Source: an uncultured bacterium (lineage in GTDB: Bacteria > CSSED10-310 > CAZUFC01). From it: a stretch of 64,000 bases of DNA. Below, one piece after another: positions 1,993 through 53,678 of the stretch (positions are counted from its first letter, which is position 1; the number at the start of each line of letters is the position of its first letter). A program made the position numbers and the translations under genes. Where the stretch lies: NCBI GenBank assembly GCA_964619725.1, contig CAZUFC010000006.1, forward strand, positions 32,001 to 96,000. The letters run 5' to 3'. The notes beneath the pieces are model-generated. The model saw only the letters and a program-made list of their open reading frames with translations, was not told the DNA's origin and searched no databases.

Positions 1993-4155
1993 ATGATCAG
2001 AAAAAGCATCATATTATTTCTCTTTTTGTTGTTGAGTAGACCTGTCGATGTTTTCGCGGAATACGTCATAACGTATATCCGGGATGGGGCATTGTGGGTG
2101 CGGGGCGGAACGGGGGATTCGGTTCGTGTTGTGTGGCAGGATTATTATGGCGGAGACCGCAGCGTAAATTACATATATTTTCAGGGGCCAGACGGCAGCG
2201 TATTGGACAGGATATTCCTGGATTACAATGATCCCGGCGGTGAGGTGATTTACGATTTGAATGAGGGTTTTGGGGATTACCGGATCGAATTTCCAGGATA
2301 TTTTTACAGAATAGCGCAGGTGACGGCTCAAGGGGCTGCTCAGCTTGTTTTCGAGCCGGCATGCGGTCACAGAGCCTATCATCCTAACGGCGTTCCCCTG
2401 TATTTCAACGTTCCGTCGGGATTATTATCTTTTACATTGTGCGGCAAATACAATATCGGCACGACCGGGATCAGGCTTTACCGTCCTGACGGCGAGTATT
2501 ACGACACGTTGATGCTTGTCGATGATCCGGCGACGCTGTATTTCGACAGGATGGAAGTGAATGATCCGGAGGCTGGAACCTGGCGGATTGAATTTGAAGG
2601 CGACGGAAAAGTCGGGTTCTGGCTTGACGGAGCGCCGAATTATTTTGCGCCGGCGGCGGAAAGTTTGTTTGAGCCTGAACCGTCGCCGGGAACCGCGGTT
2701 TTTGAGGGCGAAGGAGAAACCGGAGAAATGGGACTAATCGGAGCGTCTCTCGTCAACCTCGGTTATCCCGATGAAATATTTGAGAACATCGAGTATATGG
2801 GCCTGGAAACATTTAACTACTACAACAACATATACTGGCGAGAACCTTACAATCCCTCATTTCCTTTCGGCGGAGACAATGATGATCCGCATCTGTTCGA
2901 CTGGTCCTGGTATGTCTGGGACGATGCACGCATTTCCTGGTACCGGGAGGACCTGGGAGCGCAGATCAGCAGCCTGTTCGATGCGAAAGAGAGTTGGCTG
3001 GGCCCGCCGTTAGAGTCCTGGCAGCAGGAGGAATTCGCAGAGTTTGCGCTGGCTTATCTCATTCACGCCAATGCAGACCAGCAATATGGGATGAAATGGT
3101 TTTCTCCCTGGGACGAACCCAATCTCAGCGTTTTCACTTATGAAGAATATGAAGCGCTCTTGTTGGAAATGGCCGGAAGAATCAAAGACCCGGCGAATCC
3201 TCCTGAAGTGATTAATACTCCATTAATGGCCGTCAGCAGTTCGGGATGGGAAAATTGCAATACCGGTCCGGAAAGGATAGGACGGCTCTGGGCGGAAAAC
3301 CTCTATTTCAATTATGATCACCTGGTGGACGGCATAGCCTTCGATCACTGGGAGTTTCGCGACCTGATCGAATCCTGGCGTTTCGGCAATTCCGTGAACA
3401 TCGCGGCTGACATCATCAGAGCCAACGACACGGACGGCGACGCGGACGAAGAAATCGTCATCAATCAAACCAGCATGAGTTCCGGGAGCGGCTCCAGCGC
3501 CTATGACGTAAATTCTCATTTCAGCGCTTTATGGCTTACGGGTGCGATCTGCAGTGCCTTCAGCAAAGCAGAACTGGATGCATTTCATTATTTCACGACC
3601 GTAGACGACAACCGGCATATGAAAGGTCTGATGTATTCAGAGAATCCGCCTGAACCCCTGCCCTATCGACCGCAGGCCCAACCTTACCAGTTGAAACCCA
3701 TGGGGCATGCCATGGCCATGATAAATGAAGCAGTTCTAGATGAAATACTCATTACGGAATCGGATTCAGTGGAAGTCAATGCCCTGCTTACGACCGATGA
3801 AACAAATACTTCCGCCGCGCTCATAGCCGTCAACAAATTTCCGCGTATCAATCTGCTCATTCTCGACGCTGTATTACCAGCGGAAATGAAGAACAAATGT
3901 TATAAGGTTACCGGAGAATGCCTGGGGCCTCAGGATGAATCCCCCGAACCTCTGCAGGATTCATTGGCAATCTGCGCTGACGATACGCTCCATTTTGAAT
4001 ATGAACTCAATCCGGAAACAGTTTACGCGTTCAGGTTTTCAATTTTTACGCCAGAATTGCCGGCAATGCGAAAAGAAGCGGCCATTCCGGTCATTATATG
4101 TTTTTCCATTGGAATAAGGACGTTCTGTCGGCGGCGAAAGACGATCAAGCCATAA
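1993..4155 (+). CDS. Secreted GH-A clan (GH39-like) glycoside hydrolase-like protein with C-terminal membrane anchor
   Basis: Signal peptide; WFSPWDEPN acid/base motif; DGIAFDHW; ALWL...AF; beta-sandwich-like C-terminal part; LPAM-hydrophobic-RRRK tail. Confidence 0.55.
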   Translation: MIRKSIILFLFLLLSRPVDVFAEYVITYIRDGALWVRGGTGDSVRVVWQDYYGGDRSVNYIYFQGPDGSVLDRIFLDYNDPGGEVIYDLNEGFGDYRIEFPGYFYRIAQVTAQGAAQLVFEPACGHRAYHPNGVPLYFNVPSGLLSFTLCGKYNIGTTGIRLYRPDGEYYDTLMLVDDPATLYFDRMEVNDPEAGTWRIEFEGDGKVGFWLDGAPNYFAPAAESLFEPEPSPGTAVFEGEGETGEMGLIGASLVNLGYPDEIFENIEYMGLETFNYYNNIYWREPYNPSFPFGGDNDDPHLFDWSWYVWDDARISWYREDLGAQISSLFDAKESWLGPPLESWQQEEFAEFALAYLIHANADQQYGMKWFSPWDEPNLSVFTYEEYEALLLEMAGRIKDPANPPEVINTPLMAVSSSGWENCNTGPERIGRLWAENLYFNYDHLVDGIAFDHWEFRDLIESWRFGNSVNIAADIIRANDTDGDADEEIVINQTSMSSGSGSSAYDVNSHFSALWLTGAICSAFSKAELDAFHYFTTVDDNRHMKGLMYSENPPEPLPYRPQAQPYQLKPMGHAMAMINEAVLDEILITESDSVEVNALLTTDETNTSAALIAVNKFPRINLLILDAVLPAEMKNKCYKVTGECLGPQDESPEPLQDSLAICADDTLHFEYELNPETVYAFRFSIFTPELPAMRKEAAIPVIICFSIGIRTFCRRRKTIKP

Positions 4156-4483: not shown

Positions 4484-6766
4484 ATGAAACGATCTATTTT
4501 ATTTATCTGTGCGGCAGCAGCGCTGGCCTTTATTTCTGATGTGAGGGGCGCCGTGCCTCGTCAGATAAGTTATCAGGGTCATTTAACCGATTCGGTGAGC
4601 GGCGAGCCTCTGGACGGAACGTTCAATTTTCATTTTTCATTGTATGATGCGGATATCGGCGGGACGCTGTTGTGGAGTGAGACGCAGCCTGATGTCGATG
4701 TCGATCAGGGCGTATTTCATGTTATTTTAGGCGCTTCCGTGCCGTTTCCTTCGGAATTGCATTTTGACGAGACGTATTGGCTTGAGATAGGCATAGACGA
4801 CGGCGCGAATCCCGTGGAAATTTTAGAGCCGAGGCAACAACTGACCAGCGCGGGTCAGGCTTTGGAAGCTGCCGACGTTTATGACCAGGATATTCATCCG
4901 CGAAGCCTGGGTATAACGGGATATGAAAAAGGTATGGTAATAAATGAATACGGCGAATGGACAGGACCGCCGACAGGATTGACGGGTCCTACCGGTCCTG
5001 CAGGTCCGCAAGGCGATACAGGTCTCATAGGTCCTCAAGGATACACGGGACCCATCGGCCCGCAGGGGCAAACCGGTCCGACAGGTCCCCAGGGCGATAC
5101 AGGTGCAGCGGGAGCTGATGGCGAAACTGGTCCTGTCGGTCCGCAAGGGGATACAGGATTCATCGGTCCCCAAGGGTTCACTGGTCCTGCCGGTCCTCAA
5201 GGCGACACGGGTTACGTCGGCCCCCAGGGCGAAACCGGTCCCACCGGCCCTCAAGGTCAAACCGGTCCCGCCGGTCCTCAGGGCGATACCGGACCGACAG
5301 GCGCCGTCGGCGACACTGGCCCTGTCGGTCCACGAGGGGACACGGGGCAAACAGGCCCTCATGGCGAAACCGGCCCCACCGGCCCTCAAGGTCAAACCGG
5401 TCCCGTCGGTCCTCAAGGCGACACGGGGCCTGTCGGCGGTAATGACGGGCAGTTAATTTATAACGACGCCGGCAACGCCGCCGGAGCCGAAATATACTAC
5501 GACAAGACGACCGGATATGTGGGAGTGGGAACGACTAATCCTCTTGAGCTTTTGCATGTTGGCGGTTCGATAGAGGCTGCCGGGCGTCTGACTTTATTGG
5601 AAGGCGGTTTCAGCAATCCGTCCGTCCGTTTCGTCGATGCAACCGACGGCACAGGCGGAGTCGTCGGAATGAGCGATTCGGATAATGCGCTTCGACTGGA
5701 AGGGGGCAGCGACACGACGAACGGGGCCTGGATCAGTCTTTACGGATCGGAAGTCGTCACTCCTGCAGATATGGCGGGCGGCATACTTTTCAACGGAACG
5801 GAAGAAGACAGTAAATTTGTTTTCCGGATGAACGGCGATACGGACGATTACCTTCAATTTTCAGTCGAGAGCGGATTGCCGCACATCAGGGCGATCGGAC
5901 TGGGGACCTCATCATCGCACCGTTTGACTTTCGGATTTGATGTTCACGAAGCCTTCATGGGTTTGAGACCGACTTCAACCGACGGCATCCAGCTTAGATT
6001 AGGGACTGCAGAGGACGGCATAACCGGCGGCAGCTCCTGTGCCTTAATGCTGTGGGCGCACGGCGACGAAAGTACGACCCGACCAGGAGAAGTGGATATC
6101 TACGGCAGCGGCGTTCCGGTAAACATCATCGCAAACGGCGATCAGAGCGATTATTTCCAGTTCAGGCAGGACAGTGAAGGATTGCCCAGCATAAAGGTGC
6201 ATTCTCACACCAGCGCAGAACAAATGTCGATTGAATCCGTCAGCGGAAGCATGTACCTGAAATTAAAATCCGCCGCGCCGACAGGATTCGCTTCCATTTC
6301 ATTCTGGGACGGCGACGGCAATACCTCAAGCATAGGACAGAATTCTGTCGATTCAATGTATGTTAACTCTTTCAGCAATATAATAATCAAAACAAACGGC
6401 GGAACCGACCGCTGGCTGTTTGAGACCGACGGAGATTTTATCCCTTATCTGAACAGGGAATACGACATAGGATCGTCTGGTGCGCGCGTCGACAATATAT
6501 ATTGCGATGAAATATACGCCAATACCTGCTGCGATTATGTTTTCGATGACGATTACGAACTGAGGAGCCTGGCGGAAGTGAAAGAACACATCCTGTCGAA
6601 TGGAAGACTACCGGAAATCGACGATGATGTGTCGATAAACGATTTGCTGAAAAAGGTTGAAGAACTGACTCTTTATACTTTGCAGCAGAGTGAGAAAATA
6701 GATGAACTGGTACGGGACAGGGATGAATTGAGGTTGCGGATTAGAGAGCTTGAAAGACGGATGTGA
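4484..6766 (+). CDS. Secreted collagen-like fibre protein with tail-fibre/S74-chaperone-like C-terminus
   Basis: Signal peptide; ISYQG.LTD...LWSE...PRQQLTS N-domain; about 51 Gly-X-Y triplets; [18 protein letters not shown]...[11 protein letters not shown] and a terminal coiled coil. Confidence 0.8.
4976..5430 (+). repeat. Collagen Gly-X-Y repeat (nonapeptide GPQ-GxT-Gxx periodicity)
   Basis: Uninterrupted G-X-Y from GLT to GPV in the translation. Confidence 0.95.
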
Positions 6767-8411: not shown

Positions 8412-10157
8412 GTGATGAAAAATTTTTTGAGAGAAAGAATAATGATTAAACATTTTTGGTTAGTGATGTTTCCGCTATCCTTGTCGATCGTTTTATTGTC
8501 TCCATCCGGCGAGTCTGAGATTATACGTATCCCTTTTGATTATCCTACAATTCAAGAGGGGATCAATGCTTCTGAAGAAGGCGATACTGTTCTTATCACC
8601 GAGGGTATATATACAGGACAGGGAAACAGGGATATCACTTTTAATGGGAAAGCCATTAAAGTAACTTCAGAAAGTGGAGCAGAAAAAACTATAATTGAAC
8701 CGAATGGAAATGAACAAGAGCCTTATTGTGGGTTCATTTTCAATAACGGGGAAAATGAAAACTCGGTACTTGATGGATTTACAATTAGAAAAGGGGCCAG
8801 ATTCGGAAATCCGGGAGGTGGGGGAATTGAAATCAACAGCTCTTCACCAAGCATAGAAAATTGCATAATCGAAAACAATAAAGGAGGCGGCATCGGTGTC
8901 TGCTCTCAGGGTTCCGTCAACGCGTCTCCGTTAATTGCCAATTGTCAAATATCAGGTAATGATGATTGGGGAGGCATGGCTGGAGGAATAGCTTGTTGTG
9001 CCAGTACTGCACCCTATATTGTAGATTGTACAATTAGCGACAATTCTGGTTCCGGGTTGCATTGTTATAATTCGTATTCTTCTCCAACCATAGTAAATAC
9101 TAGAATAATGTGTAATTCTGCAAACAAAGGAGCTGGAATACATGCAATCGTCCATACTTTTCCCACAATAAGTAACTGTTTGATCATATCGAACAGTGCC
9201 GCATACGCAGGAGGAGGAATATATTTTGAACACCCTCTGGGTCCCTCTGTTAAAATTGAAAACTGTACTATTTCAGAAAACAGCGCCGATTATGGAGGGG
9301 GCATTTATTGTCTTGAATGTGAAAATTCCATTGAAATTTTAAACAGTATCCTTTGGGATAATAGCGCGGATCACGGGTCTGAAATTTATATGGATCGATT
9401 GGATATCATAAGCATCAGCTACAGCGATGTATACGGCGGACAACAAAATATTCATATTTGCGACAATTGCACCCTTCAGTGGGGATCAGGCATGATCAAC
9501 CAAGACCCTCTATTTTCATCAGGATACTGGGGAAGCCATTATCTAAGTCATATTGCCGCTGGTCAGTTAATGGACAGTCCTTGTATCGATACTGGCAGTG
9601 AACTGGCAAAGGATATTTTTTACTTGAGTTTGAATGAAACAATTTACATGGATGAAATGACAACCAGAAGGGATCATGTCGAAGACAGCGGCTTCGTCGA
9701 TATAGGATATCATTGTTCGATAAACATTCCAACACGGTCCCCTACACCAACTGGGACTTGGTTTTCTCCCACTCAAACGCCTACATTTCCTTGTATTTCC
9801 ACAGGAATAAAGCTGGAAATGCCGTCTCACACATTTAAAACAGGCGACTTATGTTATCTTTGGATGTTTGTCTGCAACTTAAATGGCGATCCAATGACAC
9901 AATATCCTTTATTCTTAATCCTTGATGTATATGGCGATTACTGGTTCGCTCCTTCATGGAAATCTAACCAGGAGGGTTTTGATTATTATATTTCAAACTG
10001 GCCGGAAGGACTCACGGAATTCGTCGTAATTGATGCCTTCGTCTGGCCCGGAGATATTGGCGAAGCTTCCGGAATAACATTCCATGCCGCCTTCACAGAT
10101 CCACAAATGACAAGGATTTTGGGAGAAACGGATTCGTGGACTTTCGGATGGGAGTAG
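8412..10157 (+). CDS. Secreted right-handed parallel beta-helix (pectin-lyase-like) protein with shared C-terminal domain
   Basis: YPTIQEGI..A..GDTVLI..G.Y.G.GN; repeated I.NC.IS.NSA..GGGI; P/T linker; ILDVYG domain; visibly AT-richer than neighbours. Confidence 0.85.
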   Translation: MMKNFLRERIMIKHFWLVMFPLSLSIVLLSPSGESEIIRIPFDYPTIQEGINASEEGDTVLITEGIYTGQGNRDITFNGKAIKVTSESGAEKTIIEPNGNEQEPYCGFIFNNGENENSVLDGFTIRKGARFGNPGGGGIEINSSSPSIENCIIENNKGGGIGVCSQGSVNASPLIANCQISGNDDWGGMAGGIACCASTAPYIVDCTISDNSGSGLHCYNSYSSPTIVNTRIMCNSANKGAGIHAIVHTFPTISNCLIISNSAAYAGGGIYFEHPLGPSVKIENCTISENSADYGGGIYCLECENSIEILNSILWDNSADHGSEIYMDRLDIISISYSDVYGGQQNIHICDNCTLQWGSGMINQDPLFSSGYWGSHYLSHIAAGQLMDSPCIDTGSELAKDIFYLSLNETIYMDEMTTRRDHVEDSGFVDIGYHCSINIPTRSPTPTGTWFSPTQTPTFPCISTGIKLEMPSHTFKTGDLCYLWMFVCNLNGDPMTQYPLFLILDVYGDYWFAPSWKSNQEGFDYYISNWPEGLTEFVVIDAFVWPGDIGEASGITFHAAFTDPQMTRILGETDSWTFGWE

Positions 10158-10164
10158 CTGGTTT

Positions 10165-10211
10165 AACTCAAAAGCAATTGAATATATGGTCATCGGAGGA
10201 TATGCCGTTGG
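10165..10211 (+). repeat. 47-bp remnant of the nucleotidyltransferase gene (direct repeat of 7242-7288)
   Basis: 44 of 47 positions identical to 7242-7288. Confidence 0.85.
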
Positions 10212-10386
10212 TTTGCTGCTTGACGGTCGCTGGGGAGTATGATCGGGTCCCATTTTTTGACTTCCAGATGGTGAGGTAATAAAAAGGAAATGTTTCCGGT
10301 TGCGCGGCGGGAAGAGTAGAAGCGGACGCGTGACGGGAAAATGAGCGCTGATAGTTGATCATTAAATACTGCGGAAAGGGTAACAG

Positions 10387-13300
10387 ATGAAAATATCACG
10401 GAATTGTTCTGCGATTTTTGTATTTTTGATTATATTATTTTTTTCAGTGGTTTCGGGAGAGTTTTCGACATCGGCTGCCGGCTGGTTTTCGTTTGCTGAT
10501 GCGGATGAATCTTCTTCGATTGAGGTTAAAAACCTGAATATGGGGCCCGACGGCCTGGAATTTGAGATCGAATTTCCCGGCATGTTTTTTCAGGAGGTTC
10601 AGATCAGGAATCGACGGTTCGTTGAGGTTGATATGCCGGGAGCGGGACGTTGCGGGGAGACGGGACATCCATCTTTGCCTGCTTTCAGGCGTTTTATTCA
10701 TATACCTTTTTGCGAGGGTTTTTCGATTGAAACGGAAATACTGGAGAAGGGAACCGTGACTTTGGCTCAAGTCGGTTACGGTCTGGAAATATCTCCTGTG
10801 CAGCCGCCGCTGGATAAAATACCCGGAGCCTATGAATCAATGAGGGTGGAGTATGATGAAAGCGCTTATCGCAGGGATGGTTACAGTCCTGAAATTTCGG
10901 CTTCGGTCGGTTATCCCGGCATGGCCAGGGGGCATCGGACGGTTCTGTTGGAAGCTTTTCCCGTGTCTTACAATGCTGTTGAAAGGGCTGTCGAATACTG
11001 TTCCGGAATGCGGATAAAAATAACTTTCCAGAATGCGGACATAATGAGGACGAAGAAATGCCTGAAGCGGTACCGGAATGTGTTGTTCGACCGGCTGGTA
11101 TCGAGTTTTTTAATCAACCCGGAGTTTATGTATTTTTTGACTGATTATCCGCCGCTTCCGCCGCCCTCCTTTTTAATTATCGTTCACGACGAATTTGAAT
11201 CGGCCGTTTATCCTTTCGCTCAGGTGAAGCAAAGCCTGGGTTATGACGTTTCTATAGCGAATACGAGTGAAACGGGCGATACGGCTTCAGAAATAAAAGA
11301 GTATATTTCAGAAGCCTATGATACCTGGCCCAATCCTCCGGTTTATGTCTTGCTGGTAGGGGATACGGATTACATACCGGCGTGGTGGGGAAGCCACAGT
11401 TATTCAGAAACGGATATCGATTATTCATTGCTTCAGGACGGCGATTATCTTCCTGACGTAGCGTTGGGTCGATGGCCTGTCAATAGCCTGTTGCAGACGG
11501 CGATCATAGTGGAAAAGACGCTGGCGTATGAATTGGCGGAAATGGAGGAGGATTCGTTTTACGGTCAGGGCGTCTTTATTGCCTCATCCGATGCCGGGGG
11601 AATGGCGGAGGATACGCATAACTGGGTGATCAGCAATTACCTGGAGCCTGACGGTCATATGGCTCACAGGGTCTGGGAATCCCAGGGCGGCAATACGAGC
11701 GACGTCATCGAGAATTTGAACGAGGGGCGCGGGTGGTGCGTTTATTCGGGGCATGGATCGCCGTCCGGATGGTTATGCGTTTACTTTCAGAAAGGCCATA
11801 TCAAAAACGACCTGACGAATTACGAAAAGTATCCGCTGGTGAGTTCTCACGCTTGTTCGACAAACACCTATGAGGATGCGGAATGTTTCGGGGAAACCTG
11901 GCTGGTGGAGGAGGAGACGGGCGGCATAGCGTTCTGGGGAGCATCGGCTACGACTCAATGGGACGAGGATGATATAATCGAGAAGGGGCAGTTCAGGGGA
12001 TTAGTGGAGGATAAAATATATGCGTATTCCATGACGACGGATTACGGCAAGTATGATCTTGTGTTGGAGTATGGCTGGTCAGGCAGCGTCTATGATTATT
12101 ATGAGAAGTATGTGGTGCACGGTGATCCTTCAATCGACCCGTTTACGGATGTGCCGGAGGAATTGACGGTGGTTCATGATCCGACGGCTCCGGTAGGCGA
12201 GTATGATTACGAGGTATATGTAGAAGGAGCGGGAGGAGCTGTGGAAGGGGCATTGGTGAATTTGATGCTGGATGAGGTAGCATTGGCGACAGGTTACACG
12301 GATTCGTCGGGCAGCGTCGCTTTAACGATATATCCGCAAGCAGCCGGCGAGATGTCGGTCAACGTATCGGCTCATAATGCAGCGCCGTATTTTGGGATAT
12401 GCATGGTTACGCCGCAGGGTTGCGGATTCATTGATTTGGACCGCGAAATATACGCATGCGGTATGGAAGCGGAAATAGCCGCCTGGGACACTGACCTTAA
12501 TAGTGATCCGGGAGTCGTCGATACGGCGGAGGTTTTTCTTTGGAGCGACTCGGAGCCTGACCCGGAGACGCTGACGATAACGGAGACGGGGAACGATACG
12601 AATGAATTCCGGGGAACCATACTGCTGTCAGGCAGTCAGGGCGGACCGGGATATTTGCTTGTTTCTCACGGCGATACGGTAACCCTGAATTATTACGATG
12701 AAGATTGCGAGGGTGAGCCTGCGGACGTATATGATTATGCGGTCATGGATTGTGCCGGTCCGGTTATAACGGGAATATCTTCGAGTGAAATAACGGATGA
12801 TGGAGCGTTGATAAGCTGGATCACGGATGAACTATCTGACAGCATTGTTGATTATGGCCCGACCTTGCCGCCGGAAAGGAGCGTTTCCGATTCGAGTATG
12901 ACGACGGAACACAGCATGAGGTTAAGCGCACTGGAGTGTTGCGAGGAATATTATTTCCGTGTGACTTCGACCGATTCGCTGGGCAATACGACGATAGACG
13001 ACAATGGAGGCGATTATTACGTTTTTTCTACTTTGGGGCGCTTTTTGGTGATGAACGCTGAGATGAACAGCGATCCGGTATGGGCCATTTCCGGAGGCGA
13101 TTGGGAATACGGCATACCGTTGGGGGAAGGGGGTTTCGCCGGTTCTCCCGACCCTGAATCGGGGCATACGGGCGATCACGTCTACGGTTACAACCTGGAA
13201 GGCGATTACGACAACAGCGTGCCGGCATATCATCTGACGACGCTGCCGGTCGATTGTTCTGCAGCAGGCGCAACGATCCTGAGTTTCTACAGGTGGCTGG

Positions 13301-15345
13301 GAGCTTCTTATTCCGACCAGGCCCTGTTGTCGGCATCAAACGACGGAGAAAATTGGGATGAATACTATCGCAGCAGTTCTTACATCTCTGATGATGAATG
13401 GGTAGAATGCACGTACGATATCTCGGAAACGGCCAACGGACATTCCGAAGTATATGTTCGTTGGACGATGGGACCGACCACACAGAGCGTAACATCGTGC
13501 GGATGGAATATCGACGACGTGCAAATTTCTATGCTGGCGTCCTGCAACGCGCCGGTTCTGGGCTATGTCGAGCACGGCATTGACGATTCTTTCGGAAACG
13601 GCGACAGTGAACCGAATCCCGGCGAGATAATCGAATCATGTATAACGCTTCACAACCATTCTGCAACAACGGCGACGGGGCTCCAGGCATTCGTTACTGA
13701 AGATGGAGATGCGATTACGGTCCTCAACGGAGATATCGTTTTTCCGGATATTCCACCTGAAAGCGAGGGAATTTCGATTCCGCCCGGTTTGATCATACAG
13801 ATCAGTCCGCAGGCGCAGGATGGAGACGTCGTCAGATTCGACATGGAATGGACGTCGGCCGAGACGTCTGGAACGGTTTATTTCTCCGAAAGGGTTGTGG
13901 CTCCTGTAATTGAATTCAGGGATTTCACCATAGACGATTCAGCAGGAAACAATGATCTTAAAATAGACCCTGGTGAATTCATCCGCCTGCCCGTTCTGTT
14001 GAAAAACGCCGGCCATGGAACCGCTGCAGTAATAACCGGCTTATTGAGCTCAGATTCTGCTTATATAGAGATAAACGACGAGACCGCCTCCTGGGAAAGT
14101 ATGGAGTCGCAGGAAGCTTGTTGGAGTTCGGAACATTTCGGCTTTACTGTCGATGATGCAGCGCCCATCGGCGAAATCGTTACTTTTCGTCTGGACATAG
14201 AGACGCAATATTTTTCCGGCATTTTTTATTTTAAAACTCACATCGGAGCGCGTCCGGTCCTGGTTATTGATGATGATGCAGGTCCGTTCGCTGAATTGTT
14301 CGTTTCAATTCTGACCGATGCAGGATTCGCTGTTTCGCTGCAGACTGCCGCAGAAACTCAGGCGTCGGAATGGCCGGATTATTTGTTCATCGTCTGGAGC
14401 GCCGGGGCCTGCATTAATCCTTTGATTGAAGATGAGTGGAGAGAGAATCTGGTAAATTACGTCAATGAAGGCGGCCGATTGCTGATCGAAGGGGGTGAAA
14501 TATGCCGCGACTTCGAATACGGAGATTGGGATTTTCTTTACACGGTATGTCATGTTGACGACTGGAATGCGAACAGTTCAGGAAATCTTCATCTAAACGA
14601 ACCCGGTCACCCTCTGGCCAATTCACCTTATGTCTTGCCTTCAGAAATTCAACATAACGACCTTAACGCGGGGGATGAGGATGCGTGCGAGGTCGCAGAC
14701 GGAGCCGATCTGATTTACCGGTGGACTGCCGAACCGGGCGGAGGCGTAATTGCATACGACGATGACGACGATGCTGAAAATGGCGGACAGACAGTCTTTT
14801 ACTCCTTTACCCTGGGCCGAATCCCCAATGCGGACGTCAGGGCAAGATTGTTGAAAAATACGGCAGGATGGCTACTGGGCATTCCCGACGCACCCTTCAC
14901 GCCTACTCCGGACCCGACGACAACGCCGACCGGCATGCCCACCTGTATTCCGACGCCGACTACCGTCCCTACTTCACTTCCCACGATATCCCCCACGCCT
15001 TCCAGCGTCATTTTCAAACTTATCCTGAACAAAAACAGATTCCGTGCCGGCGATGATTTTATTCTGGACAGACGATTGAGTAATCCCGGCGAGTCCTTGG
15101 CGGCCTATGAATTCATTATTCTCGACATTTACGGAGAATACTGGTTTTACGATGACTGGACGCGGCAAATCGACTGGCTTGATATCCTGGTCCCAGCTCG
15201 CTCGGATCAGACGAAAAATATACTGTCCTTCATTTGGCCGGATGCCGCCGGTTCCAGTCAGGGCTTGAAATTCTGGGGAGCATTGCTCGACGATCAATCC
15301 AACCTGATCAGCAATATCGATTCGTTTGAATGGAGTTTTGAGTAA
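10387..15345 (+). CDS. C25 (gingipain-type) cysteine peptidase, multidomain, with shared C-terminal domain
   Basis: Propeptide (G.P.LPAFRRFI.IP), YVLLVGD, PDVALGRWPV, catalytic YSGHGS and SHACST; Ig/FN3-like modules; P/T linker; ILDIYG domain. Confidence 0.9.
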   Translation: MKISRNCSAIFVFLIILFFSVVSGEFSTSAAGWFSFADADESSSIEVKNLNMGPDGLEFEIEFPGMFFQEVQIRNRRFVEVDMPGAGRCGETGHPSLPAFRRFIHIPFCEGFSIETEILEKGTVTLAQVGYGLEISPVQPPLDKIPGAYESMRVEYDESAYRRDGYSPEISASVGYPGMARGHRTVLLEAFPVSYNAVERAVEYCSGMRIKITFQNADIMRTKKCLKRYRNVLFDRLVSSFLINPEFMYFLTDYPPLPPPSFLIIVHDEFESAVYPFAQVKQSLGYDVSIANTSETGDTASEIKEYISEAYDTWPNPPVYVLLVGDTDYIPAWWGSHSYSETDIDYSLLQDGDYLPDVALGRWPVNSLLQTAIIVEKTLAYELAEMEEDSFYGQGVFIASSDAGGMAEDTHNWVISNYLEPDGHMAHRVWESQGGNTSDVIENLNEGRGWCVYSGHGSPSGWLCVYFQKGHIKNDLTNYEKYPLVSSHACSTNTYEDAECFGETWLVEEETGGIAFWGASATTQWDEDDIIEKGQFRGLVEDKIYAYSMTTDYGKYDLVLEYGWSGSVYDYYEKYVVHGDPSIDPFTDVPEELTVVHDPTAPVGEYDYEVYVEGAGGAVEGALVNLMLDEVALATGYTDSSGSVALTIYPQAAGEMSVNVSAHNAAPYFGICMVTPQGCGFIDLDREIYACGMEAEIAAWDTDLNSDPGVVDTAEVFLWSDSEPDPETLTITETGNDTNEFRGTILLSGSQGGPGYLLVSHGDTVTLNYYDEDCEGEPADVYDYAVMDCAGPVITGISSSEITDDGALISWITDELSDSIVDYGPTLPPERSVSDSSMTTEHSMRLSALECCEEYYFRVTSTDSLGNTTIDDNGGDYYVFSTLGRFLVMNAEMNSDPVWAISGGDWEYGIPLGEGGFAGSPDPESGHTGDHVYGYNLEGDYDNSVPAYHLTTLPVDCSAAGATILSFYRWLGASYSDQALLSASNDGENWDEYYRSSSYISDDEWVECTYDISETANGHSEVYVRWTMGPTTQSVTSCGWNIDDVQISMLASCNAPVLGYVEHGIDDSFGNGDSEPNPGEIIESCITLHNHSATTATGLQAFVTEDGDAITVLNGDIVFPDIPPESEGISIPPGLIIQISPQAQDGDVVRFDMEWTSAETSGTVYFSERVVAPVIEFRDFTIDDSAGNNDLKIDPGEFIRLPVLLKNAGHGTAAVITGLLSSDSAYIEINDETASWESMESQEACWSSEHFGFTVDDAAPIGEIVTFRLDIETQYFSGIFYFKTHIGARPVLVIDDDAGPFAELFVSILTDAGFAVSLQTAAETQASEWPDYLFIVWSAGACINPLIEDEWRENLVNYVNEGGRLLIEGGEICRDFEYGDWDFLYTVCHVDDWNANSSGNLHLNEPGHPLANSPYVLPSEIQHNDLNAGDEDACEVADGADLIYRWTAEPGGGVIAYDDDDDAENGGQTVFYSFTLGRIPNADVRARLLKNTAGWLLGIPDAPFTPTPDPTTTPTGMPTCIPTPTTVPTSLPTISPTPSSVIFKLILNKNRFRAGDDFILDRRLSNPGESLAAYEFIILDIYGEYWFYDDWTRQIDWLDILVPARSDQTKNILSFIWPDAAGSSQGLKFWGALLDDQSNLISNIDSFEWSFE

Positions 15346-19231: not shown

Positions 19232-20392
19232 TTACTTCCTCCGCCTTTTTTTTCTGATCATAAGAAGCGGAAAACCGGCCAAAAGAAGGAAAATTCCGAT
19301 GAAAGAGAGTGCCGGTGTTTGGATTTCGTCTGTAGCGTAGGCCATAACCGAGTCTGGGGGGTACCAGTCAGGAGCGTAATAAGCCAGGTAAAGGATGTCG
19401 CCGTTTTGCGCATGGGGTTCATATGGCCTGTCGCCGTATTTAAAACAAAGGCTTGATACTCCTTCGGCGGCCGGATATAGATCGTCGAACAGCACATGAT
19501 CGCCGGTATTTTTATCGACCTGGTAAACGGCGGCGACGCGTGGAGTGACGAACCAGTCGACGGAAGAGACGAACAAATCTCCTTCGATGTCCTGCGTAAT
19601 GTCATAGCCTCCGCCCAGCGCTGAGGTCAGGGTGGTGATTTCTCCCGGATCGTCGATACAATCGCGGTCATCGTTGACGTCTTCCAATCTGTAGACGTAT
19701 CCGCCGGAATCATTGGCGTAAATCACGTTCGGGTCCGCATTGTCGACGACCACCCCGCCCATACAGGCGTAAAGCGATTCCAAATCCATGGCATATGCCT
19801 GCAGCTCACCGGTATCCTTGCAATCATGGTCATCGTTTAAATCTTCCAGCACATAGATGTTGGCGCCGCCGGCACAGGTTGAGTTCGTTGCAAATATCTT
19901 AACATGAGCCGATTCCGGGCATAAACAGATATCCTGTATATTATCCATGGCATCAATCGCAATGAATTCAATCCATTCCCCGACATCATCGAAATCATCG
20001 TCCTCATTTATATCCTCCAGCCGAACGATGTACCCTTCGCCGTCCGGAAAGGATTCTTCCAGCGGATTGTTGTCCGCTATGTAAAATACGGGAATCATCC
20101 CAGAGTCATCGATTGCTATTGAACTAATGCTGCCGAATCCGTCTGCTACCAATTCAGCCGTTCCGGAAAATTCATCCATTCGATAAACCGCATCGGACAT
20201 GCCGTAACCGGGGTCCATTACCCCGTCTGAATCATGCGAAAAATACAATACGCCAAATGAATTCGTCGCCAAAGCTCCGTTTTCCGCGACATCGGTTGAA
20301 TATTCGGTCCTTACGTAACCAGTCGGCGGCTCCGCCAGAGCCGATCCGGTCATTATTAAAAAAACGGCCAGCGCCGCTGTCATCATTTTCAT
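19232..20392 (-). CDS. Secreted acidic beta-propeller-like protein with IPTL-CTERM-like anchor
   Basis: Signal peptide; three LED.N.D.D..D..GE loops; TPALSFIGIFLLLAGFPLLMIRKKRRRK tail; AGGAGG SD. Confidence 0.7.
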   Translation of the reverse strand: MKMMTAALAVFLIMTGSALAEPPTGYVRTEYSTDVAENGALATNSFGVLYFSHDSDGVMDPGYGMSDAVYRMDEFSGTAELVADGFGSISSIAIDDSGMIPVFYIADNNPLEESFPDGEGYIVRLEDINEDDDFDDVGEWIEFIAIDAMDNIQDICLCPESAHVKIFATNSTCAGGANIYVLEDLNDDHDCKDTGELQAYAMDLESLYACMGGVVVDNADPNVIYANDSGGYVYRLEDVNDDRDCIDDPGEITTLTSALGGGYDITQDIEGDLFVSSVDWFVTPRVAAVYQVDKNTGDHVLFDDLYPAAEGVSSLCFKYGDRPYEPHAQNGDILYLAYYAPDWYPPDSVMAYATDEIQTPALSFIGIFLLLAGFPLLMIRKKRRRK

Positions 20393-29008: not shown

Positions 29009-29623
29009 TCATATGAATGAAAGTTGCTTACCTTTTACAGGATCATAGTCTTTTTCGTCAGAAACGCCCTCAGACAACTCATCTCCCCATTGATACCAGC
29101 CTTTCCTTTTATGTCTGGCGAACAACTCCAGAAAAGGCCCAGGGCTGCACTCTTCGATGATTTTGTATATTTCTTCAGGCTTTCTAGAATGTTCTCTTTT
29201 CCGTGACCGTATTATATTGACTTGTCTTCGTCCCGGTGGTTTTGTTCTTTTTTTTCCACGAATTCCAAAAAGCACCAGCTCTGTAACGTTTCGAAAGTAA
29301 AAACCGACTCCTCTGCCGTCGGGACCCCCATCTTTACGGATTTTATACCAGACTAAATTGGTTTTATAATTAAATCCCCAAGCATCTATGACTTCGAGCC
29401 CCCATTTCAGAAGCGCGTTCGGGACCCACAGATACAGATGGGACTCCTCCGCTACTATTTCTGGAATAGGTAATTGTTTTATTTCTTTTAAAGTCAGCGT
29501 TTGATACCGATGTAACCTTCGATGTTCAGGCGCCATTTTACCCGTTCTGTTTTGGAAGCGCCAAGGCGGATCAGCCAGGACAGCGCCGAATTTTATGTCC
29601 CAATACTTTTTCAAATCATTCAT
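29009..29623 (-). CDS. MT-A70 family adenine methyltransferase
   Basis: LADPPW, SHLYLWVPN, WGFNYKTN.VW.K, REHSRKP, LELFAR. Confidence 0.92.
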   Translation of the reverse strand: MNDLKKYWDIKFGAVLADPPWRFQNRTGKMAPEHRRLHRYQTLTLKEIKQLPIPEIVAEESHLYLWVPNALLKWGLEVIDAWGFNYKTNLVWYKIRKDGGPDGRGVGFYFRNVTELVLFGIRGKKRTKPPGRRQVNIIRSRKREHSRKPEEIYKIIEECSPGPFLELFARHKRKGWYQWGDELSEGVSDEKDYDPVKGKQLSFI

Positions 29624-30221
29624 TTTTGTTTACGTAATCCTTTATATATAATTTTTTGGTGATTCCAAATGCAAGTATAGGACATCCGCCCCCACCGCCT
29701 CCTTCTATTTTTGGAAGCAGTTTACTCATATGAGTGGTAGAAGCTCCATACGATTTTCCTTTTTTCAGTATATTAAAAATTTGCTGTAATTCATCTGATC
29801 GAGTAATAAATACTCCCACACTCACAACATCCAATTGGTGAAGTAATCTAAAATTATTCAAGTCTCTGTCATAAAAAGGGTCTTTGTTGTTCCATTCCAT
29901 TTCAATGGCTATACGGTTTTTAAAGTAGTCGACATTATGAGTGGGCGATTCGTGCGGAACGTCGTCAACCACTACAGACACATCAAATTTTTTTTCGCTC
30001 CAACCCAAGCTCTGAAACATTCCGTTGACATTGACGGCAATAGGAGATTTCCTGCCGCCTGGCCTCAAAATGGAGGAGCTGAGTAATCTGAATCGACGGA
30101 GAACTGAGATAATGTCATTCCATTCTTCAGGAAAATCGTATTTTAAAATGGCGACGGCATGTTTCCACTCGTAAATTTCGTAGCTGGTTCTGATGTCTTG
30201 AGGAACATTTTTTAGTCCCAT
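29616..30221 (-). CDS. BglII/BstYI-family restriction endonuclease-like protein
   Basis: PGGRKS, TH.VD.FK...AIEMEWNNKDPFYDRDLNNFR, YGASTTH; 8-nt overlap with the MTase. Confidence 0.85.
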   Translation of the reverse strand: MGLKNVPQDIRTSYEIYEWKHAVAILKYDFPEEWNDIISVLRRFRLLSSSILRPGGRKSPIAVNVNGMFQSLGWSEKKFDVSVVVDDVPHESPTHNVDYFKNRIAIEMEWNNKDPFYDRDLNNFRLLHQLDVVSVGVFITRSDELQQIFNILKKGKSYGASTTHMSKLLPKIEGGGGGGCPILAFGITKKLYIKDYVNKNE

Positions 30222-30321
30222 TTTCTTGGAATTCGTCCTTTCCAACCAGTTCTTCGGTCATATCGGCAAGGTTCACTGCAAACCGTTTTTATAATACAAT
30301 GAAAGCAGAGGATATTTCAAT

Positions 30322-44670: not shown

Positions 44671-45510
44671 ATGATTAAGCCTGTTGCGTCAAAAAAAAGA
44701 GTACCGATATCGTGGCGAAAATTTCTTTCAGCATCTCTTTTGACCTTTATAATCATAGCATTAACGCCAGAAGGTTTGCAGTACCGGGTCGCGGCGGAAA
44801 ATACTTTAATCGTTCAGGGCGACTGTTACTGTAAATTTCTGCAGGATTCTATTACGGGAAAAGCGGAAAAGGAAAAAGCCGAAGGTGAAGCCGAATTCAA
44901 CCTTAAAGTAAATGGAAATGACCTGCAGGTAATGATTAGAACGGTTTCAGGGGAAGTAACCTGGGATTGGGACGTCGACAAGGAAAAACTCCGCGAAAGA
45001 ATCAGGGAATATTTTGAGAATGAAGGTATCTGCACGAGTTACGAGGTTATGACGTATGAAGTTGATTTTGACGACGGATCGGCTGAAGGAGAAGCGACGG
45101 TCAGAATTTCCGCTTTGGGGCTTTCGCAGGAACTGGAAATCGAAGATATAAGGATATACGGCGAAATAGAAGCGCTTGTACAACAGGCGGAAGAACAGGA
45201 AGATGAATTCACAGAAACCGACGTCAATGCCGATCAGATTGAATGGGATGAGGAAAGAATGTGTTCCGAAGCTTTACGCGTATTCCGTGAAAAAATTGAA
45301 GAATGCAATATCGAAACTTTCGAAAAGGATACGGCAGAGGGCGAAGTGAGAGTCAATCGATGTACGGGAAAAGTGACGGGGGATGTGAACATCACTCCCT
45401 GGGACGTTGAAATACGTTACGATAATATTCCCCTGACAGGCACGGTAAAATGGAATTGGAAAGAAGTCTGCGGAACAGAATTCTCTCAATATGCGATATG
45501 TAAGGAGTGA
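44671..45510 (+). CDS. Hypothetical exported acidic protein with internal repeats
   Basis: AGGAGG SD, N-terminal hydrophobic segment, three AEGE motifs. Confidence 0.65.
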   Translation: MIKPVASKKRVPISWRKFLSASLLTFIIIALTPEGLQYRVAAENTLIVQGDCYCKFLQDSITGKAEKEKAEGEAEFNLKVNGNDLQVMIRTVSGEVTWDWDVDKEKLRERIREYFENEGICTSYEVMTYEVDFDDGSAEGEATVRISALGLSQELEIEDIRIYGEIEALVQQAEEQEDEFTETDVNADQIEWDEERMCSEALRVFREKIEECNIETFEKDTAEGEVRVNRCTGKVTGDVNITPWDVEIRYDNIPLTGTVKWNWKEVCGTEFSQYAICKE

Positions 45511-45520
45511 CTTTTCTTTC

Positions 45521-47296
45521 TTATCTCCAGGGAACGTAGCTGAATGTAACGGAAGTGTAGGCGCCGAAAAGCCCCATTTCATCGGCATCGACCAACCCGG
45601 CATAGAATTTCAGTCCGTTGCCGGCGCCCGCATTCTCCGGCCAGTTGAATTCAAGGAGGATCAAGTCTTCAAGAGATTGCGGCTGGAGAATTTTGTATTC
45701 CGAATCAGGGGTGAGAGACCATTCGGGCCAGTAAAATAGCATGCCGTATACGTCCAGAATGACATAATCGTACACGGCCTTTGGAACGGAATGCGTATTC
45801 ACGGCTCTTTTTTGCAGCAGGAACAAGTCTTTCGGGTGAAACATGGTTTGATTTAAATTAAGGTAATTGCCGTCTTCATCCGGATAGACGGGTGTCGGCG
45901 TGAGTGTTCCCGGTCCCGGAGTGAAGGTATTGGACGGATAAGTGGGTGTACTTTGGCTTTGAGTCGGCGATGGAGTGGGAGTTCGGGTCGGCGTTTGAGT
46001 GTGCGCTCCAGTAGGGGTATCGGTTGGAGTGCGTGTAGGGGTTGAGCTTGGAACCGGAGTGTTGTCGCCATAGAATCCGTCGTCGAATCGGAGAACCCTG
46101 GAGCGTTTCATGTTGTTGCCGCCTGTAGTGAATCCTCTGTGACGATCTACAAAAGCCCCATACATGCAAGCTGCCGCCACGGAAATGGGGTCCCTGAACC
46201 AGGACGCACCTCCGTCGAGAGTGTGCAGAATCGCACATTGAACGTCAAAACCTCCCGCTCCGAATCCGAAAGCCCAGCCTTCATTCGGACCGACAAACAG
46301 AACATCCGATAATCCGTGTTGGTTGCTGGAGGGATAATAAACTTCCTGCCACGTTTGTCCCCCGTCGGTCGTATGCAGAAGCAAAGACGTCAGATCAGCC
46401 TCCGCAGAGACCCACCCGTTCTGTGAATTTTTAAAATACAAATCATTCAGATAAAAACGCCCGTAATCTTCATACTGCTGCTCCCAGCTCTGGCCGCCGT
46501 CCGTCGTATGCAATATGACCGCCTCATATTGTTCTGATTTATATCCGGGAATATACGCTTCAGCAGGCAAGCGCAAAGGTTCGGGGTCATTCTCGTATCT
46601 CTTGTATAAAGAATAAATGCTTCCGATTCCTTCCTCCTTCGTCTTTCGCTCTCCCTCAGCAGTCCCACAGGGAACAGGCGTAGGGTCCTCCGGCCACATA
46701 CCGCACGTCATCCATCCCTCATTCGCATTGATGAAATAAACATACCGCGGCGGAGGATAAGAAGAATCAACAGGATATCCATGCCATGAAATGCCTCCGT
46801 CAGTCGATCTCTTGACGCCGCTCTTGTTCACTAGTAATCCCCACGTGCCCACCATCCAGACATGCTGTGCATCCAGGGCATAAACCGATTGAAACACCGT
46901 GATCGTATGACTGAATTGAATCGGCAACCAGGTCGCTCCGCCGTCCGTTGTCCTCCCTCCAGCTCCTTCACTCGGAAAGCCTACCACCTTCGCTCCTGCT
47001 ACAAATCCCACCTGATCCGTTGCCATGTCCATGTCGACCAGGAATACCGATAAGTCCATCCCCGAATACTGCAGCGTGAAATTTTCGCCTCCGTCAGACG
47101 AAAAATGTATCTGATTGGTATTCGTCGCCTCATTCAATCCGCACAGCCATACCTTGTAGGGCGATGCGCAATCAATACTCAATGCGCTTAATCCCATTCC
47201 GAACTGATGCACTACCTGCCAGCCTTCCTGGGCATTGATACAGACGCCCCCCATTACGAGAAAAATACCTAAAACAGCGATTATGTGCCTGCTCAT
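45521..47296 (-). CDS. Secreted YCF48/BNR-repeat beta-propeller protein with shared C-terminal domain
   Basis: Six [ST].DGG..[WF] repeats; P/T linker; ILDVYG domain. Confidence 0.88.
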   Translation of the reverse strand: MSRHIIAVLGIFLVMGGVCINAQEGWQVVHQFGMGLSALSIDCASPYKVWLCGLNEATNTNQIHFSSDGGENFTLQYSGMDLSVFLVDMDMATDQVGFVAGAKVVGFPSEGAGGRTTDGGATWLPIQFSHTITVFQSVYALDAQHVWMVGTWGLLVNKSGVKRSTDGGISWHGYPVDSSYPPPRYVYFINANEGWMTCGMWPEDPTPVPCGTAEGERKTKEEGIGSIYSLYKRYENDPEPLRLPAEAYIPGYKSEQYEAVILHTTDGGQSWEQQYEDYGRFYLNDLYFKNSQNGWVSAEADLTSLLLHTTDGGQTWQEVYYPSSNQHGLSDVLFVGPNEGWAFGFGAGGFDVQCAILHTLDGGASWFRDPISVAAACMYGAFVDRHRGFTTGGNNMKRSRVLRFDDGFYGDNTPVPSSTPTRTPTDTPTGAHTQTPTRTPTPSPTQSQSTPTYPSNTFTPGPGTLTPTPVYPDEDGNYLNLNQTMFHPKDLFLLQKRAVNTHSVPKAVYDYVILDVYGMLFYWPEWSLTPDSEYKILQPQSLEDLILLEFNWPENAGAGNGLKFYAGLVDADEMGLFGAYTSVTFSYVPWR

Positions 47297-47781: not shown

Positions 47782-48255
47782 ATGAGAAGAGGCGACAAGG
47801 GTTTCACGTTGATCGAGTTATTGATCGTTGTAGCGATTATTGGAATTATTGCGGCGATAGCGATTCCCAGTCTTCTGAGGTCCCGTATGTCCGCAAATGA
47901 AGCGGCCGCAATGGGAGGCTTGAAGACCATCGCAGCCGGCGAGACCGACTACAACAACAACTCACTGCCCCACACGTTTACCGGCGAGCTGGCTTGCCTG
48001 GGATCCGGTAACGGAGCCGGCAGCGTAGCCTTCATCGATCCGGCGTTAAAAGCTGGTTTGAAATCAGGTTATACGTACGAGCTGACAGGCGGTACGCCGG
48101 TTGGCGGCAGCATTTGGACGTGGTCTGCGACGGCTTGGCCTGTTGTTTATCAGAGCACGGGAATCAGAACTTTCTACATTGACGAAAGTGGTGTGATTCG
48201 CGGTCAGGATATCGACGGAGTCATGGGCACAGTTGCATTACGTTCAGTAGAGTAG
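47782..48255 (+). CDS. pilA: Type IV pilin, probable major pilin
   Basis: KG/FTLIELLIVVAIIGIIAAIAIP prepilin motif; KSGY.Y, G.RTFYIDESGVIR; own promoter and terminator. Confidence 0.85.
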   Translation: MRRGDKGFTLIELLIVVAIIGIIAAIAIPSLLRSRMSANEAAAMGGLKTIAAGETDYNNNSLPHTFTGELACLGSGNGAGSVAFIDPALKAGLKSGYTYELTGGTPVGGSIWTWSATAWPVVYQSTGIRTFYIDESGVIRGQDIDGVMGTVALRSVE

Positions 48256-52586: not shown

Positions 52587-53678
52587 CTATTCATCCTCCG
52601 ACTTTCGAAATTGTCTCAACATATAAGATGAAAATTCCCCATCCATTCGCATTGAAATTACTGTCCATACCCATCTGCCCTCTGCTATTCCGCTCCAGTT
52701 CTGTATCGAGACAGGCAGTTCCGTTACGAATAAAGGCAGCATCGCCGAATAACTATTTCCCGTGAAGTCGCCGTTCTCATCTACCTGCGCCAGAGCGAAA
52801 ATATAACCCAAACTCCGGTTGTCTATCTCCCACCGGAACGTCGGCGCCTGACGGCTTGACAATAAAGCCCCGTCAGCCGGCAATATCAACGTTACAGCAT
52901 CGGTAGCCGCAAATACGAAATCCTGTTCCTCGGAATAAGGCTGCTGACTTTCGCCGCTTGCACAATCTGCAGACGTCACTCGCCAACTGTATCCCATCTC
53001 GTTCGTCAATTCGTTCCAGGTCGCCTCGCACAATCCGCCCACTTCAATCGTACATATCCCGAATGCTTCGTCATAATCCTCCTGTCCGATATCCCATAAA
53101 TATTCCATCTCACTCGCCTTATCAAGTAAAGACATTCGATAACACTCGCTCAACTTCGATTCCGTCCAACTGAACCTGATCACTCCCAATGCCGTACTAT
53201 AATCTATCCATGTTCCCTCCGTCGGAAAAATCGGCACCAACGCATAATCAGACTTCGAATCCGATATTCGAAACTTCCAACCGTCCATCATTAAATTGCC
53301 GGCATTGTCCGCCGCCGTCGTGCTTATCTCTATCCATTCCCCGCTTTCAAAATCCTCCGGCGGCTCATACACTATCTTCGCCTCACTGAAATCTTCCGAC
53401 ATCTCAATTATCGGCTCCACTACCGTCTCCTCTATCTCGATGTATATGCTCTCAGCATTCAATCCCTGACCGTCGTCAACTATCAATACCGTTATCGACG
53501 TATGAGGCGATATGTCCTCCGATTCCGGGGGAGGCAACGGCGATGCAAGATAAGGGGGAGCCTGATCCCTTCCCTGTACCGTCGCAGCTATGATAAAAAT
53601 GAAAAATAAAACGACAGCAAAAACTCCTGGCTGCCTGTGACTTCTTTTGATCTTCTGTTTTGTTTTTTCAGGATTCAT
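52587..53678 (-). CDS. Short paralogue of 49580-52408 (one Ig-like repeat plus shared C-terminal region)
   Basis: DQAPP...IVDDG.G...ADNAGN; C-terminal about 225 aa aligns by eye with the neighbour. Confidence 0.75.
   Translation of the reverse strand: MNPEKTKQKIKRSHRQPGVFAVVLFFIFIIAATVQGRDQAPPYLASPLPPPESEDISPHTSITVLIVDDGQGLNAESIYIEIEETVVEPIIEMSEDFSEAKIVYEPPEDFESGEWIEISTTAADNAGNLMMDGWKFRISDSKSDYALVPIFPTEGTWIDYSTALGVIRFSWTESKLSECYRMSLLDKASEMEYLWDIGQEDYDEAFGICTIEVGGLCEATWNELTNEMGYSWRVTSADCASGESQQPYSEEQDFVFAATDAVTLILPADGALLSSRQAPTFRWEIDNRSLGYIFALAQVDENGDFTGNSYSAMLPLFVTELPVSIQNWSGIAEGRWVWTVISMRMDGEFSSYMLRQFRKSEDE

Follow-up and report, generated by a model that had tools for sequence, protein, structure and literature searches.

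A portable Ig-like tail domain on unrelated exported proteins of CSSED10-310 bacteria that probably directs them to the cell surface or attaches them there

Introduction

Portable sorting modules at the C-terminus are known in principle. The C-terminal domain (CTD) of type IX secretion systems (T9SS) is a folded beta-sandwich at the end of many Sec-exported proteins, gingipain-family proteases included, and its copies in a genome number from tens to hundreds. Dockerin and SLH modules are non-covalent surface anchors that are portable, mostly terminal and separated by linkers on unrelated exoenzymes. This work adds a domain family with similar habits. We describe it from three unrelated exported proteins in a 64,000-nucleotide stretch of DNA, which we call the window (assembly GCA_964619725.1, contig CAZUFC010000006.1, positions 32,001 to 96,000). 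The host is an uncultured member of CSSED10-310, a Gram-negative, anaerobic phylum that is sister to the Acidobacteriota (PMC8248873).

Two further systems mark proteins at the same position. The IPTL-CTERM signal with exosortase H and the GlyGly-CTERM signal with rhombosortase consist of a short motif, a transmembrane helix and a basic tail and are cut by a membrane protease; published tails of this three-part kind act as anchors. GlyGly-CTERM cargo reaches the surface through a type II secretion system (T2SS), and VesB without its GlyGly-CTERM is still T2SS-secreted but released, so this signal is an anchor and not a secretion signal (PMC6219818). MYXO-CTERM cargo likewise requires a T2SS (bioRxiv 2023.06.07.544157), and an IPTL-CTERM protein was recognised as the S-layer protein of the diderm Methylomirabilis (PMC8671808). 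As for how the T2SS chooses its substrates, PMC12369372 sets out that there is no universal signal and reports that the Ig fold of VesB makes a beta-lactamase T2SS-secreted, in dependence on the PDZ domain of EpsC.

Results

The first of the three proteins is an exported right-handed beta-helix protein (8412..10157, plus strand, 581 aa [amino acids]; PF13229 Beta_helix, E 6e-18), for which a later methionine at 8442 is the likelier start. Its Pro/Thr linker, located like the others from the translation, lies at 9729..9791 and its tail domain (copy 1, 121 aa) at 9792..10154, with WTFGWE as the last residues. On the same strand, an exported gingipain-family protease (10387..15345, 1652 aa) comprises Propeptide_C25, Peptidase_C25 (aa 262-583; PF01364, E 3e-55), accessory domains, an approximate linker at 14884..15000 and tail copy 2 at 15001..15342 (independent E-value, iE, 7e-41), ending in FEWSFE. 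This protease scores 32 bits against the PorU model, far below the cut-off of 420. The third is an exported BNR/Ycf48-like beta-propeller on the minus strand (45521..47296, 591 aa; Pfam PSII_BNR/BNR), with an approximate linker at 45890..46063 and tail copy 3 at 45524..45889 (iE 1e-29), whose last residues are VTFSYVPWR.

All three have a hydrophobic N-terminus, a Pro/Thr linker and a common tail of ~118 aa. Copies 2 and 3 are 32% and 29% identical to copy 1, and 23 columns in the alignment of the three tails never vary, among them L, D and YG in ILDVYG and F, WP and G in FxWP..G. An earlier note on this stretch had proposed that three unrelated signal-peptide proteins share one C-terminal domain that lacks a transmembrane helix. 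The open reading frames (ORFs), Pfam and the tail alignment bear out the former point and the all-beta predicted structure the latter. Of the aromatic ends that it listed, FGWE and WSFE are correct; FSY is not, as the third protein runs four residues further (FSYVPWR).

An AlphaFold2 model of copy 1 gives a confident eight-strand Ig-like beta-sandwich (pLDDT [predicted local distance difference test] 96.9) without a transmembrane helix, which answers the structure-prediction check that the earlier note had suggested. The top structural neighbour is the N-domain of a GH66 dextranase (5axg; Z 9.2, root mean square deviation [rmsd] 3.6 A over 102 residues, 5% identity), with which GH2 accessory domains tie; RbmA (Z 8.0), CARDB (3idu, 7.7), the Wzt carbohydrate-binding domain (6o14, 7.2) and macroglobulin domains come next. 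The Ig-like accessory domains (5axg, 3idu, 6o14 and macroglobulin) share the broad fold at Z of 7-9, but at 5-17% identity and an rmsd of about 3-5 A, and no neighbour stands out. The predicted Ig-like fold is a common one, which by itself would assign no family and show no function. Foldseek matches to RhoGDI (TM about 0.5) were taken as generic Ig likeness and not as a sign of lipid binding.

Across 373 copies, conservation is highest at F, G and D in FxxGD, at an Asn that follows strand 2, along the stretch L-D-V-Y-G-x-Y-[FW]-F-x-P-x-W, at F-x-W-P and at the closing F-x-W. The domain thus has a conserved aromatic cluster and an aromatic-x-aromatic last strand; the exposure of these aromatics was guessed from strand alternation. 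It is acidic (D+E 13.5%, K+R 2.6%), as is its cargo.

The domain family is uncatalogued in the libraries that we searched. Pfam, NCBIfam and PHROGs gave no match for the window copies, nor did Pfam and NCBIfam for 63 aligned copies (best Pfam E 0.011, to an unrelated family). The sequences of the PDB (best E 1.1) and phage records, viral contigs and viral folds (none at E<=0.001) held no meaningful match either. Among the 63 tail copies none matched the Pfam models of dockerin, SLH or catalogued carbohydrate-binding modules (CBMs), the FlgD-Ig model PF13860 (whose 12 matches in the genome containing the window, G000, lie elsewhere) or the T9SS CTD models TIGR04183 and PF18962 (0 matches in all of G000, while TIGR04183 does find matches in the relatives G009 and G006). 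These hidden Markov model (HMM) searches agree with the earlier note, which had seen no likeness to T9SS CTD, FlgD-Ig, SLH or dockerin. A literature search, with supplements and most subscription journals outside its scope, found no description of the domain.

The genome containing the window comprises 9.17 Mb in 344 contigs and is 91% complete with 6.5% contamination. The similarity of the three window tails is far from a chance result: an HMM built from them alone found 213 of its proteins at iE<1e-3, with only 9 domains between 1e-3 and 1, and two iterations brought the total to 224 domains in 223 proteins, in line with the many genome-wide copies that had been predicted. Of the 224 copies, 212 end <=10 residues from the stop. 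By heuristic criteria, a signal-peptide-like start is found in 185/219 carrier proteins versus 2074/5640 other proteins of the genome, 200/219 carriers have no hydrophobic segment after residue 70, four have a lipobox-like motif and none a Tat motif. A Pro/Thr-rich stretch (>=25% Pro+Thr) precedes 147 of 210 copies. Hence the HMM check proposed beforehand returned matches that are mostly C-terminal and on signal-peptide-like proteins: not a characterised domain, and not a set of few, internal or cytoplasmic copies. Five of the 224 copies, and four among the best 150 library matches, are N-terminal or internal, so a free C-terminus is not strictly required. The domain is nearly always single (one library protein has more than one copy), and proteins with this tail account for ~6% of coding residues in the genome.

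The cargo is diverse. Among 66 sampled library matches and the window and locus proteins, proteases are represented by the C25, S8, astacin and M6 types, and there are also beta-helices, several propellers, vWA proteins, amidase and phosphoesterase. The nearest other tail copy has homologous cargo in just 59 of 206 cases and tail copies more than 60% identical are found on unrelated cargo, which indicates that the module has been shuffled.

Within CSSED10-310 the domain occurs in 11 of 14 genomes; 10 of the 13 relatives have from 57 to at least 150 scored matches each. The other three (G011-G013), from three families, gave none, also with a broader alignment that included divergent copies (best E 0.8). 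A library clustered at 50% identity yielded 2498 matches at E<=1e-3, of which 2159 have E<=1e-10. Among the matches listed, which leave aside the 339 at E 1e-10 to 1e-3, the named ones belong to CSSED10-310 or are labelled plain 'bacterium'. Look-alike clusters in the ESM Atlas (0.92-0.95) have a few members in other phyla, a weak lead given recognition scores below the reliable range. A carrier protein of ~1560 aa is conserved in several relatives (loci L105-L109) beside an NAGPA-like gene and two exported proteins with TonB_C domains; it was rejected as a core component because G000 has no full-length orthologue.

The domain replaces a membrane-anchor signal that is otherwise borne by the same families of cargo. 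About 223 proteins of the genome end in an [IV]P[AST]-like motif, a transmembrane helix and a basic tail, as found with an HMM of our own. An example in the window is an exported protein with no Pfam match and no tail domain (19232..20392, minus strand); the exported protein at 1993-4155 (plus strand), also with no Pfam match, has a divergent IPTL-CTERM-like end that our tail HMM missed. The two tail types do not overlap among the ~220 carriers of the genome, 101 carriers in the loci that were fetched, or the listed library matches. Yet they share cargo: 56 of 86 non-carrier homologues of carrier cargo bear the IPTL-like tail, and for 28 of the 130 carriers with a cargo match the best match is an IPTL-like-tail protein. 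One such pair is 61% identical across 959 aa and differs just in tail type, and the closest cargo paralogue, among tailed proteins, of the window beta-helix protein has the IPTL-like tail (37% over 437 aa). The C25 proteases illustrate the exchange. In G000 (24 of 26 examined) 14 end in the domain, one in a weak copy, five in the IPTL-like tail, three in a third tail described below and one in none; G012 has no copy of the domain, and there the IPTL-like tail closes 9 of the 12 C25 proteases that are complete (13 of 15 matches fetched). The domain thus resembles the IPTL-CTERM and GlyGly-CTERM signals in position and cargo families and is mutually exclusive with the IPTL-like tail, but is a soluble folded domain. 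A short XrtH-like exosortase is present in 14/14 genomes. In most carrier loci seen (L162:840-1481, L156-L166), the gene directly downstream of the exosortase encodes a conserved membrane protein of ~215-250 aa, which matches no Pfam or NCBIfam model and may be an accessory subunit.

The third tail class is a choice-of-anchor X-like domain of ~120 aa ending in WPxLx[VI], often as a tandem pair, on 31 exported proteins of the genome (e.g. contigs C70:1692-4958, C69:23988-27278 and C93:18232-19656; in a fetched locus, L152:1668-3839). None of the 31 also has the tail domain or the IPTL-like tail, and kinship between this class and the tail domain was rejected (hhalign 3.9%). A papain-family protease in the window (62659-63975, plus strand) matches CFI-box-CTERM just below the cut-off (36 vs 40 bits), a further type of C-terminal signal.

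The earlier note had described the domain as a lineage-specific tag analogous to the T9SS CTD. That it is lineage-specific, multicopy, almost always C-terminal, borne by signal-peptide proteins and uncatalogued has held up; the analogy fits position alone and extends neither to the sequence profile nor to PorV. Like the type A CTD, the domain is a C-terminal beta-sandwich with many copies on Sec-exported proteins, gingipain-like proteases included. However, the CTD models span 72-75 positions against ~118 aa here, and the few N-terminal and internal copies are easier to square with a binding module than with a terminal signal that is cleaved off. Comparison by hhalign with four T9SS-type CTDs from the relatives G009 and G006 gave a probability of 1.3%. 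PorV (PF19572) was found in 0/5 genomes, with a positive control in Bacteroides thetaiotaomicron; SprA_N and GldN were each found in 0/5, without a positive control for either model, and the PorP search gave one borderline match in G000 (22 bits). The structural matches listed for the domain model, to which this statement is confined, include no T9SS CTD. Judged by its sequence, the domain is not a T9SS CTD. The T9SS-type CTDs themselves lie on short contigs of the fragmented relatives G009 (10 matches) and G006 (1; loci L252-L255), and may be binning contamination or real.

The cells are diderm, as judged by Omp85 (5/5 genomes) and LpxC (4/5), so that soluble cargo needs a route across the outer membrane. 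Secretins are present in 14/14 genomes. An operon gspE-F-G-H-I-J-K-L-M-D with a Big_1 lipoprotein gene is kept in 9/9 carrier genomes examined; in G004 and G009 the contig ends inside the lipoprotein gene. The orthologous gspD end of the operon is present in both non-carriers examined (G011 and G012), and a T2SS unique to carriers was accordingly rejected. Two features expected for T2SS substrates are present, a Sec-type start (in the 185/219 above) and a complete T2SS in the genome (the gspE-M,D operon and a separate gspC). A domain-bearing gene follows the operon in 9/9 carriers examined (in G000 after a second lipoprotein gene and a short ORF), compared with a genome baseline of 179 in 4977 next genes (3.6%). 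Since the genomes are kin, this adjacency goes back to about two ancestral placements: five genomes have a co-oriented beta-helix gene there, and seven have a convergent M6-peptidase-like gene.

G011 and G012 are alone in having gspC between gspM and gspD; in all nine carriers examined it lies outside the operon. A relocated gspC-like gene was found in 10 of 11 carriers, among glycosyltransferase-like membrane genes (no Pfam confirmation) and behind a gene for an exported beta-propeller. This propeller has a generic WD40-like fold (pLDDT 88) and was found in 9/11 carriers and 0/3 non-carriers, where the matches are the model's own seed sequences; the carriers in which it was not found are G010 (86% complete) and G004 (60%), and the relationship of the member in G000 is weak (leave-out iE 2e-5). 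The relocated GspC-like proteins mostly start like a lipoprotein and terminate in Cys-Gly-[RNF] (L193:5204-7281, which is C4:13204-15284 of G000; L197-L205). An extra receptor domain on GspC was considered and rejected, as no further folded domain follows the HR region. The GspC of the conserved operon gave no PDZ match.

Discussion

The tail domain probably directs its cargo to the cell surface or ties it there, by a so far undescribed route, and the readings in which it serves as an address or an anchor are, taken together, very likely. The one that we favour, at a probability of roughly 0.45, is that it is a portable, folded module for non-covalent surface anchoring that replaces the exosortase anchor, on cargo that travels by Sec and the T2SS. 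Read from the sequences, a Sec signal peptide would bring the protein to the periplasm, and the folded protein would then cross the outer membrane through the conserved T2SS. We infer this route, as no T9SS was found and the cargo itself lacks a membrane segment. The domain, on its Pro/Thr linker, would finally bind a putative surface glycan or protein non-covalently, so that proteases, beta-helix enzymes and propellers are retained on the cell. Cargo families would thus have two options, such anchoring or the covalent exosortase/IPTL-CTERM anchor that their other members use. The one-for-one swap with a membrane tail, the tolerance of N-terminal placement and the existence of the same cargo without the domain make a non-covalent anchor the simplest account.

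Several observations weigh against this account. The count of IPTL-like tails rests on an HMM built from this genome's own motif matches, and is therefore partly circular; the curated IPTL-CTERM model TIGR04174 passes just 2 matches in G000. The exosortase of G000 does not reach the XrtH cut-off (76.6 against 86 bits), nor does that of G005, while the G011 orthologue passes at 86.5. Of the 86 non-carrier cargo homologues, 27 have neither tail, and mutual exclusion is equally compatible with a secretion tag or a 'release' label. An acidic domain disfavours direct binding to anionic lipopolysaccharide, although the cargo is similarly acidic. No binding partner was identified, and a self-repeat scan of G000, which sees fairly similar repeats only, found no tandem scaffoldin-like receptor; a scaffoldin was rejected on that scan. 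The likeness to dockerin and SLH modules concerns architecture (portable, mostly terminal and linker-separated on unrelated exoenzymes) and not sequence or a scaffoldin. Dockerin-like motifs do occur separately in 13 proteins of the genome. By eye, some exported proteins have cohesin-like and dockerin-like tails, and a secretin has a weak C-terminal cohesin match (C64:27584-33550, C122:13844-17086 and C86:30045-33221 of G000; L152:8044-10578).

The main rival, possible though in our view less probable than an anchor, is that the domain is a dedicated tag, transplantable between soluble (non-lipidated) cargo proteins, by which the T2SS would recognise them; GspC/GspD would read it in the periplasm, perhaps with the gspC-linked propeller as an adaptor, and IPTL-anchored cargo would meet the same machine through its membrane anchor. 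The domain-bearing gene behind every T2SS operon examined, far above the baseline, and the relocation of gspC behind a propeller that non-carriers lack both point this way. So does size, with 1/215 carriers longer than 2000 aa against 29/216 IPTL-like proteins, although these are paralogues and not independent. The VesB Ig fold is a precedent, an Ig-like domain with transplantable T2SS information read through GspC (PMC12369372). That case concerns a single substrate and the EpsC PDZ domain, whereas here one family is found on ~220 substrates and GspC has no PDZ match. Moreover, the adjacency shrinks to about two ancestral placements, the same operon is found in non-carriers, and any clade-specific gene would show the gspC-propeller pattern, which itself rests on model seeds, misses G010 and G004 and includes a weakly related G000 member. 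GspC has no extra folded domain after its HR region, and the same cargo also exists without the domain. A bolder version, in which one CSSED10-310 clade evolved a universal modular T2SS tag on 60-220 unrelated proteins per genome, read by a propeller adaptor and the relocated GspC, is doubtful; if true, it would put T9SS-style sorting logic on a type II machine that is otherwise thought to lack a universal signal.

An ordinary accessory binding module (CBM- or CARDB-like), expanded in one clade, that targets enzymes to food or matrix and not to the cell would account for the generic Ig-like fold with its dextranase, GH2, RbmA, CARDB and Wzt neighbours, the conserved aromatic cluster, the internal copies and the Pro/Thr linkers, which are typical of modular enzymes. 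We consider this unlikely, because such a module should often precede an IPTL anchor, as other modules do, and it does so in none of the carriers compared above. The cargo is also chemically unrelated (from C25, S8, astacin and M6 peptidases to amidase, phosphoesterase, vWA and propellers), the domain is nearly always single, and the exclusion of the two tails would be left unexplained. Equally hard to favour is a T9SS-like signal for an undescribed translocon, with recognition of the terminal strand, a novel barrel, and cleavage and conjugation by a gingipain-like sortase. It would explain a cargo repertoire and position like those of T9SS CTDs, and the conserved aromatic-x-aromatic last strand. 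A conserved C25 protease of ~2000 aa that has the domain and is 63% identical between two families would fit as well, but its accessory domains are common to many paralogues, and it was rejected as a PorU-like sortase for want of distinguishing evidence. Apart from the one borderline PorP match, T9SS parts were not found (with a positive control for PorV only), no clade-specific barrel or other candidate gene was identified (without whole-proteome profiling), and N-terminal copies exist; this too is improbable. An artefact of low complexity or binning, for which the 6.5% contamination and 344 contigs of G000 might speak, is refuted by copies on many contigs of 11 genomes, bimodal scores, a confident fold and the 2159 library representatives at E<=1e-10.

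The tail domain defines a large part of the exoproteome in this little-known lineage of anaerobes. As an anchor, it would be a new non-covalent module for surface display, freely exchangeable with an exosortase signal. As a T2SS tag, it would open to experiment the long-standing question of how the T2SS chooses substrates that share no signal, for which one 118-aa domain and a reporter would suffice. The domain might also find use as a secretion tag, and it offers a possible sorting route for gingipain-like proteases in cells where no T9SS was found.

Other features of the window

The window also holds genes that touch none of these subjects. At 29009-30245 (minus strand) a BglII-family endonuclease adjoins an MT-A70 methyltransferase, likely a restriction-modification pair. 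An exported collagen-repeat protein (PF01391) is encoded at 4484-6766 (plus strand), with several further collagen-like proteins elsewhere in the genome, and a lone type IV pilin-like gene lies at 47782-48255 (plus strand). Two ORFs have no Pfam match: one at 44671-45510 (plus strand), Cys-rich and with a hydrophobic N-terminus, and one at 52587-53678 (minus strand).

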